Source of the DNA: Eledone cirrhosa
Taxonomy: Eukaryota
Assembly (NCBI GenBank): GCA_964016885.1
Contig: OZ024743.1
Span: 322,462,001 to 322,526,000, forward strand
Reading direction: 5' to 3'
DNA: 64,000 nucleotides
Part shown: positions 39,237-52,690 of the stretch, one piece after another
How positions within the stretch are numbered: position 1 is the first letter of the stretch
Layout of the letters: each line of letters begins with the position of its first letter
Notes under the pieces: generated by a model
Told to the model about the DNA's origin: nothing
The model's database searches: none
Seen by the model: the letters and a program-made list of their open reading frames with translations, nothing else
Position numbers and translations under genes: made by a program

Positions 39237-39272
39237 CTTTACCGGTTTCGCAGTTCTTCTGCTTTTCAAAAG
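39237..39272 (-). ncRNA. Minimal hammerhead, U3:A8 core variant
   Basis: Reverse complement reads CTT TTGAAAA GCAG-AAGAA-CTGC GAAA CCGG TA AAG. Confidence 0.7.
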
Positions 39273-39329
39273 TAAAGTTGTGATGGAGGGTCTGTGGTTT
39301 TTTCTCAGAGACCCTCCATCTCAAATCTA

Positions 39330-39365
39330 CTTTTGAAAAGCAGAAGAACTGCGAAACCGGTAAAG
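39330..39365 (+). ncRNA. Minimal hammerhead, U3:A8 core variant
   Basis: CTT TTGAAAA GCAG-AAGAA-CTGC GAAA CCGG TA AAG. Stem I CTT/AAG, stem III palindrome ACCGGT, predicted cleavage after A39362. Confidence 0.7.
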
Positions 39366-39693
39366 GAACCAAATAAATATGTATATTTTTTTTAAAATAA
39401 GACTCCAGTTGCATTTTCGATTTCATCCTTTTTCTCTCTCTCTCTCTCTCTCTATATATATATATATATATATATATATATATATATATATATATATATT
39501 TAAGCAAGGAGTTATATATATATATGTATGTATATAAATATATATATATATACATATACATATGTATATATATATATATATATATATATATATATGCATG
39601 TGTATATATATATATATATATATATATATATATATATATATATATATGCATGTATATATATATACATGTATGTATGTATATATATATATATAT

Positions 39694-39899
39694 AAAAACC
39701 ACAGACCCTCCATCTCAACTCTACTTTTGAAAAGCAGAAAAACTGCGAAACCGGTAAAGGAACCAAATAAATATATATATTTTTTTTAAAAATAAGACTC
39801 CAGTTGCATTTTCGATTTCATCTTTTTTTCTTTATACTTTCACTCGTGTAGGACACCTCGGCTATTTTTCATTTTGTAAAAAAAACCTCACTTTCTAAC
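39694..39899 (+). mobile_element. Second insertion of the same PLE 3' end, with hammerhead at 39724-39759
   Basis: Near-identical to the reverse complement of 39101-39302 and flanked by (TA)n on both sides. Confidence 0.8.
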
Positions 39900-39950
39900 A
39901 TATATATATATATATATATATATATATATATATATATAGGAACCAGTAAG

Positions 39951-40044
39951 ACCCCGACAGCTGAGCTCAAGCCGTTTCGACGGCTAATTCTGGACTAAAT
40001 GAAAATTTATCCTGGTATTTAAATAGCCGATCTTCTCAAGGGGT
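39951..40044 (-). ncRNA. Type I hammerhead (U3:A8 variant), inverted pseudo-LTR copy
   Basis: Reverse complement of 43203-43296. Confidence 0.75.
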
Positions 40045-40614
40045 AATTCCATATATGGTCAAAGTGATTGTCAAAAATCAGTAGTAATTCTGTGGTTGCA
40101 AATTAGTAGGGGAGATGGTGGCTAAACCTGCCAGTAGGAGAAAGAGGGGAGGGGGTGGAGTAGACCCAATCAAGCGTTGGTAGTGCCAGCTACAGCTGGG
40201 CATGAGGTCAAAGAAGATACAGGGGAGGGGAAGGGGAGGAAGTCGGAACGGTAGGTAGAACAATGGGGGGTAGAAATATATAGGAAAGAAAAAATACTGA
40301 GAGTGAAGAAAAGCAAATAAGTGTAAAGAAAAAAGTAAAGTAAATTAAATTCTACGACCTAGGTCTCAGGCTATTGTTAGGCTAGAATAAAATAAAGAAA
40401 GAAAGAAAGAAGTAAATAAATAAATAAATAAAGAAATAACGAAATAAGTAAAAGAACTAGGTGGGACGGTATAGGCAAGGACCCTTTTAAGAGGTATAAG
40501 TACGTAAATGATACGGTGACGGGTCAACAAAAGGGGCCAAAATACTAAAGAGACTACCACGAAATAAACAATAAAGGTTTCCATCCCGGGCCAGCAACGA
40601 CCCAGTGCAACAAA

Positions 40615-49877: not shown

Positions 49878-50067
49878 ATATATATATATATATATATATA
49901 TATATATATATATATATATATATATATATATATATATATACATAGATATAGATATATATAGATATATATGTATACATATAAATATATATATATATATATA
50001 TATATATATATATATATATATATATATATATATATATATATATATATATATATATATATATATATAT

Positions 50068-50645
50068 ATCATATGTAACCCATGTGCAACCACGCAGTAT
50101 TCTTCTTTCTTCTCATTTTTATTTATATATATTTACCTCGGCTGCGTTTGTCTGTTTCTCTCTTACTGCTTCCCCGTTCTCTCTGTTGCTCTCACCTTCT
50201 TTCGCCCCTCTGTCAGTTACACTTTCTCTCGACTGACCTCTTCCTCGCACTTCCACTCACTCACTCACTGTTTCTCCCCTTCTCACTTCATCCCGTTTGG
50301 CTAGTAGTGGGTTCTATTCTTGCTCACATCTCACTCACGTCGGACGGTCTGTATCCCGATCGCTCATGAAATCCACCCAGCTTATGCTGACCGGATAACC
50401 ATGTTGCTTGTTTATTTCCATCTTTGCGTTGCTTTCATCCTTCTATGTTGTTTACTTGTCTCACTCGCTTTACGCGATTTACTTGTCCCAATAGCTTTAT
50501 TTAGCTATTGCTCGCACCAACCTGAGGTATATGATTTTTAATGCGATGAAATATCAATGATGGTTGGCAAATCACTGACGAAGGACTATTTTTATCATAT
50601 GTAACCCATGTGCAACCACGCAGTATTCTTCTTTCTTCTCATGTT
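50068..50645 (+). mobile_element. Non-coding 526-bp unit with a terminal direct repeat (family also at 52910-53150 -, 55040-55760 +, 60410-60690 -)
   Basis: atcatatgtaacccatgtgcaaccacgcagtattcttcttt occurs at 50068 and 50594. Flanked by (TA)n. Confidence 0.7.
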
Positions 50646-51218
50646 TATATATATATATATATATATATATATATATATATATATATATATATATAGTAAT
50701 AATAATAAAATTGAAGACTAAAATCCAAAGAGGGCTCGATAAGGATAAATATATATCAAATATATAAAAACCGTAGAGCAAATATTTATTAAAATAACAG
50801 ATTAAAGTTTAAGCAAAGAATCGCTGCTTTCACCCTTAACGGGATCTTCTGAAACTAACAAAGTCAATCTGTAAACGCAGAACTGGATATTTCAAAAAAC
50901 GTTGCAACCGGAGGAAGACAGGAAGACGATACTTTGGTTCGTGGAAACGTTCGCTGGCAAAGAACGGGAAAAAACGAATAATACGTCACTAAAAGGAGCG
51001 GTAAAAAACAATTACGCGCAAAGACAGAACCACGTTTAGGTATAAAAGAGGTCGTAGACACTAATGTTCTCTTAGGTGGTGCATAGAGACGTTCTCTGGC
51101 AATGAACGAAAAAACGAAGATATATATATATATATATATATATATATATATATATATATATATATATATATATATATATATATATATATATATATATATA
51201 TATTAATATATATATATA

Positions 51219-51303
51219 GAAGAAGAAGAAGAAGAAGAAGAAGAAGAAGAAGAAGAAGAAGAAGAAGAAGAAGAAGAAGAAGAAGAAGAAGAAGAAGAAG
51301 AAG
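51219..51303. repeat. (GAA)n microsatellite
   Basis: Directly visible. Confidence 0.95.
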
Positions 51304-51687
51304 TTTCGTTTACATGTTTTTATTGTTTAAACCTGTTACACGCGTTTCGCAGAGGATTGGCTCAATGTCATCCATAGAAGTTATGGACTCGACTCCAGTA
51401 ATTCGACAAAAAATTATTTATTTCATGTTATTTTATTTATTATTTTATTTTATGCGGAATCGTCAGTCTGACGAGCAGATCGATACTGGTGGCAGACCCA
51501 TACCTTCCAAGTGTCCATACACAATAAAAGAAGAAATACATGTAAACGGAAAACTTTATCGGTTTTCTTATTATATACACTCTGTGCAACGAGTGCTCAT
51601 ATTGGTACCACCACCAATAATTCGCCCTATTACATACACTATATATATATATATATATATATATATATATATATATATATATATATA

Positions 51688-52098
51688 TAAGATCAAAAGA
51701 TGGTTAAATGAGTTCAATGTATTTTATTATGCGCATTTCAAAAACAAATATCATCATGCAATAACATTTGTGTTTTCATCAGATAAAATAGGAGGACATG
51801 ATATGAAGGTTAAAAACACTTGTGGATAGTGCAGTTTTAAATCAACATATCATTTAAACTGCACTATCCACAAGTGTTTTTAACCTTCATATCATGTCCT
51901 CCTATTTTATCTGATGAAAACACAAATGTTATTGCATGATGATATTTGTTTTTGAAATGCGCATAATAAAATACATGGAACTCATTTAACCATCTTTTGA
52001 TCTTATATATTATGTATACTCCAGTCCTACAAACTGTAGAGTGCTTCTTATCCGATATCTGCATTGCTTTATTGTACTACAATAAAACTCACCTCCTA
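51688..52098 (+). mobile_element. PLE-type fold-back (arms about 150 bp) plus a tail of about 88 nt
   Basis: 51688-51838 is inverted relative to about 51855-52010, and the tail is 52011-52098. Flanked by microsatellite. Confidence 0.85.
51903..51973 (+). ncRNA. Canonical type I hammerhead (mirror copy at 51720-51790, minus strand)
   Basis: TATTTTAT CTGATGA AAACACAAATGTTAT-TGC-ATGATGATATTTGTTTTT GAAA TGCGCA TA ATAAAATA. Confidence 0.85.
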
Positions 52099-52175
52099 CA
52101 CACACACACATATATATATATATATATATATATATATATATATATATATATATATATATATATATATATATATAT

Positions 52176-52690
52176 ATTATGACGAGAGAAGAAACATTTA
52201 GATATAATTAGTAATAAAATGTATCATACCTAAACTGCTCCTAGATTCCTCGACTACGTAGTTTCGTGGCATAAACAAAAACAATACATCATAAAGATAT
52301 AGAGCTTTTGCGAGGTCTGCCGACTTATCAAGAGGATACCTCGTTTTACTAGCTTCAAGAACGCGTCTATATGACGTGAGAAAGAATCCCGTCATATAGA
52401 CGCGTTCTTGAAGCTAGTAAAACGAGGTATCCTCTTGATAAGTCGGCAGACCTCGCAAAAGCTCTATATCTTTATGATGTATTGTTTTTGTTTATGCCAC
52501 GAAACTACGTAGTCGAGGAATCTAGGAGCAGTTTAGGTATGATACATTTTATTACTAATTATATCTAAATGTTTCTTCTCTCTTCATAATGTACTTTTAG
52601 CTCTGATACTGGTTCAGTCTAATCCAACCGGATTGGTCTGTCCCAGTTATTCATAGAGCAACATCGGTTAAGGTTGGCACCATTAACTCA
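52176..52690 (+). mobile_element. PLE-type fold-back (arms about 200 bp) plus a tail of about 100 nt
   Basis: 52176-52376 is inverted relative to 52390-52590 (one mismatch noticed), followed by an unpaired tail. Confidence 0.85.
52430..52519 (+). ncRNA. Type I hammerhead, U3:A8 variant (mirror copy at 52247-52336, minus strand)
   Basis: TCCTC TTGATAA GT(C)GGCA...TGCCAC GAAA CTACGTAG T C GAGGA. Predicted cleavage after C52514. Confidence 0.8.

Follow-up and report, generated by a model that had tools for sequence, protein, structure and literature searches.

U3:A8 hammerhead cores, a published variant, are the norm in three large repeat families of Eledone cirrhosa

A descriptor scan of the window, the 64-kb stretch of the Eledone cirrhosa genome analysed here, recovered with identical boundaries all seven complete type I hammerhead motifs that a first-pass annotation had placed in it. 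These motifs belong to three families, named A, B and C, and lie among the following features.

39109..39299, minus strand: family A stub, the long arm to the element 3' end, inserted in (TA)n (blastn, 96%)
39237-39272, minus strand: family A hammerhead, core UUGAAAA, GUA site, N17 = A39240
39330-39365, plus strand: hammerhead of family A, carried by the short inverted arm (39306-39433), core UUGAAAA, GUA site, N17 = A39362
39724-39759, plus strand: family A hammerhead on a separate 5'-truncated stub (39697-39889), core UUGAAAA, GUA site, N17 = A39756
39936..40645, minus strand: family B inverted pseudo-LTR arm, a 99-100% inverted repeat of 42601-43311, which stops ~20 nt beyond the predicted cut site
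39951-40044, minus strand: family B hammerhead, core UUGAGAA, GUC site, N17 = C39956
40615..42090, plus strand: family B 5'-truncated RT + GIY-YIG ORF (ORF list, tblastn 97.6%, motifs), corresponding to residues 230-717 of the 719-aa protein from a full family B copy
42601..43390, plus strand: family B 3' pseudo-LTR, which extends into (TA)n, ~98 nt beyond the predicted site of cutting
43203-43296, plus strand: family B hammerhead with a long bulged stem II, core UUGAGAA, GUC site, N17 = C43291
48028..48128, no strand assigned: fold-back stub of an older sister family, B2, with only the 3' half of the hammerhead
52172..52340, minus strand: family C inverted arm, with a hammerhead at 52247-52336, core UUGAUAA, GUC site, N17 = C52252
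52426..52758, plus strand: family C long arm, a piece of a 591-nt non-coding tandem unit, with a hammerhead at 52430-52519, core UUGAUAA, GUC site, N17 = C52514
59253..59441, no strand assigned: fold-back stub of family B, broken within the stem II loop and without the UUGAGAA half

Only four insertions account for all seven motifs, which sit on paired inverted arms or, in one case, on an additional family A stub. All have three stems in type I order and a UH site. U4 G5 A6, A9, G12 A13 A14, A15.1-U16.1 and a non-G N17 are present in 7/7, and the 3:8 pair is Watson-Crick U3:A8 in every one. Stems I/II/III measure 3/4/3 bp in A, 5/8/6 bp in B and 5/6/5 bp in C. A and C have a perfectly palindromic stem III (ACCGGU and ACUACGUAGU, respectively), and that of B is a hairpin with a palindromic loop. 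Folding produced no monomer stem III hairpin for A or C, and the stem III self-duplex comes to -8.3 kcal/mol in A, -26.3 kcal/mol in B and -12.9 kcal/mol in C. Folding z-scores, which are weak on their own, are -0.75 for A, -0.57 for B and -2.6 for C. The copies in the window are truncated fold-back insertions and probably inert. About six canonical C3:G8 motifs, absent from the first-pass annotation, also occur in the window.

In family B, an RT + GIY-YIG ORF lies upstream of the hammerhead on the same strand, in the window and at two other loci (L091 and L098), and tandem units are 3,542-3,543 nt long. The protein displays RWR (for RWK), DKT, a CxCX5C linker and CxxC + CxH in the endonuclease, there is no GxKF, and the target is (TA)n. 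These features, together with the presence of a hammerhead, are shared with the Hydra clade of Penelope-like elements (PLEs) (Craig et al. 2021, PMC8557442), although the B unit of 3.5 kb exceeds the usual <3 kb, and Hydra-clade hammerheads are called canonical in that study whereas B has U3:A8. Family B is thus, as judged by motifs, an autonomous PLE with Hydra-clade motifs. Family A likewise has an RT + GIY-YIG ORF upstream of its hammerhead on the same strand (L093, L094 and L127). Its protein, read from a frameshifted copy (L094), contains GxKF, DKG and a CX2-5CxxC linker followed by a C-terminal GIY-YIG, motifs that identify A as a Neptune/Nematis-type PLE. Pfam returned no match for the B ORF or for two other ORFs, and the clade assignments therefore rest on motifs, which support A and B being separate PLE clades.

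Family C has a different organization, with tandem units of 591-597 nt. Its copies recur at spacings of 590-607 nt in 32 instances, 18 of them exactly 591 nt (counted over overlapping loci), and each tandem unit is non-coding, with a longest ATG ORF of 75 aa and one predicted type I hammerhead. As a circle, the unit folds at -174 kcal/mol versus -141 +/- 5 kcal/mol for shuffles, and its sequence is present in four sequencing runs of unrecorded kind. No RT + GIY-YIG ORF linked to C was found in the ~40 of 5,847 copies that were read. Hydra-type ORFs lie beside C copies at two loci (L121 and L075), but with (TA)n in between, and these are other insertions; the one at L121 was rejected as the parent of C, its own 3' region being common to L141 and L107. 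Because it has a 591-nt unit without a long ORF and no parent was found, C is not counted as a PLE family. Hence, of the three unrelated PLE families proposed in the first-pass annotation, A and B stand but C does not. C is likely a non-coding tandem retrozyme rather than a PLE pseudo-LTR, as suggested by its sequence organization, and is likely mobilised by PLEs. Indeed, it resembles non-LTR retrozymes (Cervera and De la Peña 2020, PMC7229834; bioRxiv 10.64898/2026.07.22.740005) in its non-coding head-to-tail units with one type I hammerhead each, its GC content under 45% and a circle fold more stable than shuffles. It differs in its U3:A8 core, PLE-style inverted 5' arms, (TA)n targets and a longer unit (591 nt versus about 170-400 nt).

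The genome was sampled in 123 evenly spaced 10-kb stretches (1.23 Mb) using a descriptor that accepts any 3:8 pair (score of at least 10), with five shuffles as control. Among the 64 matches, 51 have C3:G8 and 11 have U3:A8, making the pair Watson-Crick in 62/64, with only two mismatches (one C:A and one C:C). Shuffled sequence gave a mean of 6.4 matches over all pairs and 0.6 for U:A, versus 11 in the real sample. A descriptor relaxed at 3:8 is thus needed to recover roughly one in six of the hammerheads detectable in this genome. Exact patterns counted genome-wide matched 4,650 times for A, 2,165 for B and 5,847 for C, so that the large variant population anticipated by the first-pass annotation does exist, at no fewer than about 13,000 exact matches. 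Of the first 100 copies listed for each of A and C, 98 in A and 99 in C have U3:A8. For B, the flank-anchored copies genome-wide include 16 without U3 and 13 without A8, with C3:G8 in none. U3:A8 is therefore the normal state of the three families and not decay. U4, G5, A6, A9, GAAA and the UH site are unbroken in A, B and C, and likewise in five more U3:A8 motifs from two other families. Rfam searches contribute little here. Over the whole window, 150 of 214 matches were listed and include no hammerhead, only microsatellite artefacts, and over A, B and C there is no hammerhead family at E<=10. One canonical C3:G8 pair in the window gave no hammerhead model match either, showing that the Rfam test does not discriminate and that the core swap, previously proposed as the cause, does not account for these motifs being missed.

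The U3:A8 variant itself is already published, and its apparent novelty in PLEs does not hold. Natural U3/A8 pairs, in which the C3-G8 tertiary contact is exchanged in the same compensated way, were reported by Perreault et al. 2011 (PMC3088659), but those are rare variants from a broad survey and not retroelement families, whereas here whole families carry the change. A U3-A8 descriptor search in PLEs was published by Cervera and De la Peña 2014 (PMC4209133), who described about 1,300 U3-A8 minimal hammerheads in Schistosoma PLEs (Cercyon, S. mansoni). Fig. S3 of that study includes the cores UUGAUAA and UUGAAAA, both of which occur here too, as well as a comparable motif from S. japonicum (CUGAAGA) and one from Saccoglossus whose core, UUGAAGA, has U3·G8. 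Type I hammerheads with U3-A8, PLE pseudo-LTRs, inverted pairs and over a thousand dispersed copies are common to Cercyon and the present families. Unlike in Cercyon, stem III is longer here (3-6 bp), no extra nucleotide follows A9, stem II is long and bulged in B and C, and the variant is hosted by Hydra-type and Neptune/Nematis-type elements plus a non-coding tandem, with copy counts about ten times higher. Our results thus extend a variant known since 2011 and 2014 by three large families, and what is new is limited to a hint that older relatives of B likely kept spreading with a half-way U3·G8 pair.

These older relatives (B2) display three states of the 3:8 pair: C3:G8, U3·G8 and U3:A8. 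Natural cores across B and B2 include CUGAGGA, UUGAGGA, UUGAUAA, UUGAAGA and UUGAGAA. In one group, U3·G8 is present in 17/37 copies versus a 7% background, suggesting that wobble-core source elements probably transposed; linkage evidence for this is weak, position 3 in the G7-G8 group showing no significant overall linkage to other columns (30/300 permutations). Stem II has changed on both sides (CGGCUA/UAGCCG in B versus CAGCUA/UAGCUG in B2). B2 copies have U·U at 10.2:11.2, and the youngest, most uniform family of the lineage has a Watson-Crick 3:8 pair and A-U at 10.2:11.2. Copies of B2 with UUGAUGA were considered as intermediates and rejected: the opposite arm is UUGAUAA in two insertions (L340 and L343, near-adjacent arms), and hence most of these copies represent decay. 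Four stretches chosen for a full B2 element contained stubs only. We lean slightly towards reading the B lineage as a fossil record in which the 3:8 pair was rebuilt stepwise, C3:G8 -> U3·G8 -> U3:A8, and in which another U3·G8 subfamily sits close to the youngest family. Sources with a wobble core would have kept transposing, implying that little cleavage activity suffices for the retroelement cycle.

Family A has a sister, A2, in which stem II has also changed on both sides (GCAG/CUGC in A versus GCAU/AUGC in A2). GAAA is replaced by GCAA (A13C) in 5/5 A2 copies and stem I is about 2 bp, both of which count against a need to cut. For A itself, the shortness of stem I (3-4 bp) and the lack of a folding signal count against cutting. 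Canonical hammerheads are lacking in Naiad PLEs, which spread nonetheless (PMC8557442). Selection for the fold, as proposed in the first-pass annotation, is backed by covariation at 3:8 and in stem II, but it is not strict, as relatives with U3·G8, a stem II U·U or GCAA have spread. Considering the U3·G8 and GCAA relatives, selection for the fold looks real but loose.

We consider it probable that the motifs represent type I hammerheads whose U3:A8 core, already published, is fixed in two PLE families and one non-coding tandem; they are predicted to cut RNA, likely slowly. Transcription reading through a tandem source copy would yield an RNA that is cut at the GUH site. The palindromic stem III of A and C would have to pair with a second copy for cutting, and B could adopt the cutting fold alone or as a pair. 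The product would be unit-length RNA, which in B would start ~190 nt upstream of the AUG. Insertions extend 78-100 nt past the cut site, which is intact in all of them, so the reverse-transcription template must span the site, and could be uncut or religated as a circle; PLE reverse transcription starts internally (PMC11167929). A slow or incomplete ribozyme would therefore cost little, and such tolerance likely let the 3:8 pair drift from C3:G8 via U3·G8 to U3:A8. Cleavage by PLE hammerheads is low and dimer-dependent (PMC4209133), and covarying 3:8 pairs are active in vitro according to work cited in PMC3088659. In a type III hammerhead subjected to pairwise mutagenesis, a G:C swap was the sole rescue, and low activity was seen in the remaining single and double mutants of the CUGA region (PMC9901934), suggesting that U3:A8 may cut poorly.

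The low activity of those mutants, all from one construct, would also suit an unlikely alternative in which the motifs are kept as a fold (e.g. a binding or priming site for an element protein), cutting is dispensable and U3:A8 is held by structure or inheritance. The intact cut site in all insertions points the same way, as do A2, with its compensated stem II yet A13C in every copy, and B2, which spread despite U·U at 10.2:11.2 and U3·G8 cores. However, three large young families and the five U3:A8 motifs of two others retain U4, G5, A6 and A9, GAAA and the UH site, and the youngest, most uniform family of the B lineage has both the Watson-Crick 3:8 pair and A-U at 10.2:11.2.

We regard as very improbable the first-pass suggestion that U3:A8 is an adaptive tuning of rate, in which slower cleavage spares longer-than-unit templates. 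The template must indeed span the cut site, and the swap has at least two separate origins in this genome, but C3:G8 families with the same need are about five times commoner (51 versus 11 matches), both base changes are ordinary transitions and wobble states spread too. As for the copies being independent decay of CUGANGA families, or chance folds, the weak z-scores of A and B would fit. The family counts (98/100 in A, 99/100 in C and all but 29 flank-anchored copies in B, the exceptions never being C3:G8) refute this reading, which is also at odds with the excess of U:A matches over shuffles and has virtually no chance of being correct.

Whether PLE hammerheads need to cut was left undecided in previous studies (PMC4209133, PMC8557442). 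The C3:G8, U3·G8 and U3:A8 subfamilies within one scaffold, together with the GCAA sister, are natural test cases for this need. If it holds, the B-lineage side result matters more than the addition of three families: the ladder would provide a natural allelic series with which to measure how little cleavage suffices.

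The hammerhead numbering used here and the roles of the conserved core bases are those of the textbooks. All seven motifs described by the first-pass annotation were recovered at their positions, including its cut sites A39362, C43291 and C52514. Family A combines the core UUGAAAA with 3-, 4- and 3-bp stems and a GUA site; in family B the core is UUGAGAA, the stems measure 5, 8 and 6 bp and the site is GUC; in family C the core is UUGAUAA, with stem lengths of 5, 6 and 5 bp and again GUC. The seven motifs make up only four insertion units, every one in (TA)n: an inverted pair of A, an A stub, an inverted pair of B flanking a truncated ORF, and an inverted pair of C. 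Because they are truncated and fold-back, these copies are probably inert. The window also holds about six canonical C3:G8 type I hammerheads from at least five other families, with endonuclease fragments near them.

45085-45140, + strand: canonical C3:G8 hammerhead
49451, + strand: canonical C3:G8 hammerhead
51903-51973, + strand: canonical C3:G8 hammerhead
51720-51790, - strand: canonical C3:G8 hammerhead
48496, - strand: canonical C3:G8 hammerhead
59769, - strand: canonical C3:G8 hammerhead
43727-44023: endonuclease fragment
48733-49227: endonuclease fragment

Counts within the families show that the U3:A8 cores are not independent decay of CUGANGA copies, the outcome that the annotation had named as a refutation. 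Family A has 4,650 exact-pattern copies genome-wide, with U3:A8 in 98 of 100 among the matches listed, and family C has 5,847, with U3:A8 in 99 of 100 among the matches listed. For family B, the pattern that found 2,165 exact copies does not reveal position 3. B copies found with upstream anchors include 16 without U3 (all A8) and 13 without A8 (all U3), and C3:G8, sought among these exceptions, occurs in none of them. A hammerhead descriptor that sets no condition on positions 3, 7 and 8 was also applied to a sample of 123 10-kb stretches at even spacing along the 2,996-Mb genome, excluding the window's two neighbours. There were 64 matches at score ≥10 (51 C:G, 11 U:A, 1 C:A and 1 C:C), compared with a mean over five local shuffles of 6.4 for all pairs together and 0.6 for U:A. 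U3:A8 is carried by roughly one in six detectable hammerhead motifs, only roughly because arms of the same insertion were each counted and one of the 11 U:A matches looks spurious. Two more U3:A8 motif types, with four copies and one copy, occur in the genomic stretches examined.

L109:6129, - strand: further U3:A8 motif type, with three similar copies
L177:3137, - strand: locus noted with the two further U3:A8 types
L181:3181, - strand: further U3:A8 motif

In its flanks the L109 type resembles a C3:G8 motif of L177, which may mark a further switch.

The variant itself was already in print. Natural U3/A8 was reported by Perreault et al. 2011, where earlier proof of activity is cited (PMC3088659), and Cervera and De la Peña 2014 (PMC4209133) describe U3-A8 in Cercyon PLEs of S. 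mansoni, with ∼1,300 matches by a dedicated descriptor, and show UUGAUAA, UUGAAAA and one UUGAAGA example in Fig. S3. In one type III hammerhead, the G:C swap was the sole change to be rescued (PMC9901934). Other sources concern retrozymes (PMC7229834; bioRxiv 10.64898/2026.07.22.740005), PLE clades (PMC8557442) and internal initiation of PLE reverse transcription (PMC11167929), with further references in PMC7151607, PMC6765202 and PMC2920678.

The description of the three as unrelated PLE families holds, as regards PLE, for A and B, and is not supported for C. In family B, an autonomous PLE, copies in tandem lie 3,542-3,543 nt apart and contain an open RT and GIY-YIG frame of 719 aa counted from the first Met. 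Its protein has RWR, DKT, CxCX5C, CxxC and CxH and lacks GxKF, which are marks listed for the Hydra clade in section 11 of PMC8557442. Family A is associated with a frameshifted RT-endonuclease (in L094, and likewise in L093 and L127) whose GxKF, DKG and CX4CxxC linker fit the Neptune or Nematis type; the A and B RTs share 30% identity across 71 aa. Family C is built of non-coding units, 590-607 nt each, arranged head to tail; the longest frame opened by ATG is 75 aa, and the DNA resembles neither A nor B. The best reading of C is a non-autonomous, retrozyme-like element. C arrays lie in (TA)n, where their 5' arms are inverted and their 3' ends fixed, and as a circle the unit folds at -174 kcal/mol vs. 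-141 ± 5 in 20 shuffles. A parent element was not found among the ∼40 C copies read. In L069 and L070, a C subfamily with 81% identity and a unit of 597 nt retains UUGAUAA, with a U·G in stem I.

Since B has close C3:G8 relatives, its U3:A8 swap arose inside its own lineage, separately from A. UUGAAAA is shared by the sister family A2, which dates the A-type swap before the A/A2 split. Families C and B have in common a long stem II with a bulge at the third position.

As a side result, B and its older sister family B2 offer a candidate ladder from C3:G8 through U3·G8 to U3:A8; no stepwise 3:8 series within one lineage was found in the literature searched outside subscription journals. The 3' half of B2 has 2,809 exact matches, mostly stubs, and its core pattern has 327, with 87 U3:A8, 6 U3·G8, 3 C3:G8 and 4 other in 100 among the matches listed. 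A tree that masks positions 3, 7 and 8 (FastTree topology alone) sets a G7-G8 group apart from a U7-A8 group that includes B. Position 3 in 37 copies of the G7-G8 group (L286, which is B-like, a single second arm and any copy with <100 nt downstream are left out) is U in 17, C in 18, G in 1 and A in 1. Background transitions number 105/1,553 at non-CpG sites, where the highest column is 8/37, and 128/720 at CpG sites; U3 in 17/35 gives p = 2e-11 at 6.8% and 5e-4 at 22%, although search-pattern columns bias the background low. UUGAAGA, two changes from the B core, occurs in five B-flanked copies on four contigs (upstream-anchored patterns), and UUGAGGA, a single A8G change, in four. UUGAAGA also occurs in three arms of two insertions, a candidate B/B2 intermediate.

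G000:C1:5772325-5772585: candidate intermediate, core UUGAAGA
G000:C10:40603527: candidate intermediate, core UUGAAGA

That source elements with a U3·G8 core transposed is slightly favoured. A mutation hot spot at the end of the C run may instead account for U3 in the G7-G8 group: six of the 18 C3 copies are ambiguous (their C run is one short), linkage of position 3 with other columns is weak (over 85 columns the best p is 0.009, and the summed score is reached in 30 of 300 permutations), and the two arms of the L252 insertion disagree at position 3. In the same direction, U3 is found in 8/9 clear copies with C11.1 yet in 7/14 with U11.1 (p 0.086).

The annotation's observation is confirmed; its interpretation is partly supported. 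Double-sided stem II changes distinguish B from B2 and A from A2. Positions 10.2:11.2 are U·U in most B2 copies, and A2 combines UUGAAAA and a compensated stem II with a stem I of ∼2 bp and GCAA in place of GAAA in 5/5 copies, one of them downstream of an A-like endonuclease fragment.

L174:9270-9365: A2 copy
L204:8930-9025: A2 copy
L134:2275-2370: A2 copy
L134:4790-4885: A2 copy
L103:4465-4560: A2 copy

The U·U and GCAA are further signs of loose selection, and A2 is possibly a dead hammerhead that nonetheless spread.

Stem III self-duplex energies are -8.3 (A), -26.3 (B) and -12.9 (C) kcal/mol, and computed folding gave no monomer stem III hairpin for A or C. Tandem transcripts would be cut at N17, in A and C by pairing of two motifs; PMC4209133 describes cutting by motif pairing and low in vitro activity for PLE hammerheads. 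In B, the predicted cut lies ∼190 nt upstream of the AUG. Insertions end ∼98 nt (B) and at least 78 nt (C) beyond the predicted cut site; the template must therefore extend across it, either uncut or after religation. This is true of any PLE hammerhead and gives U3:A8 no special role.

Among B and B2 insertions, short fold-back stubs are very numerous (window 59253-59441 and 48028-48128, and many sampled stretches). They break in the hammerhead stem II loop, ∼135 nt from the 3' end, with a perfect palindrome at some of the junctions. This stem II may be where reverse transcription stalls or snaps back. Relatives of the B protein at 30-85% identity form many distinct families in 1.2 Mb of evenly spaced sample, which makes the Hydra-type PLEs of the Eledone cirrhosa genome look unusual in both diversity and abundance.
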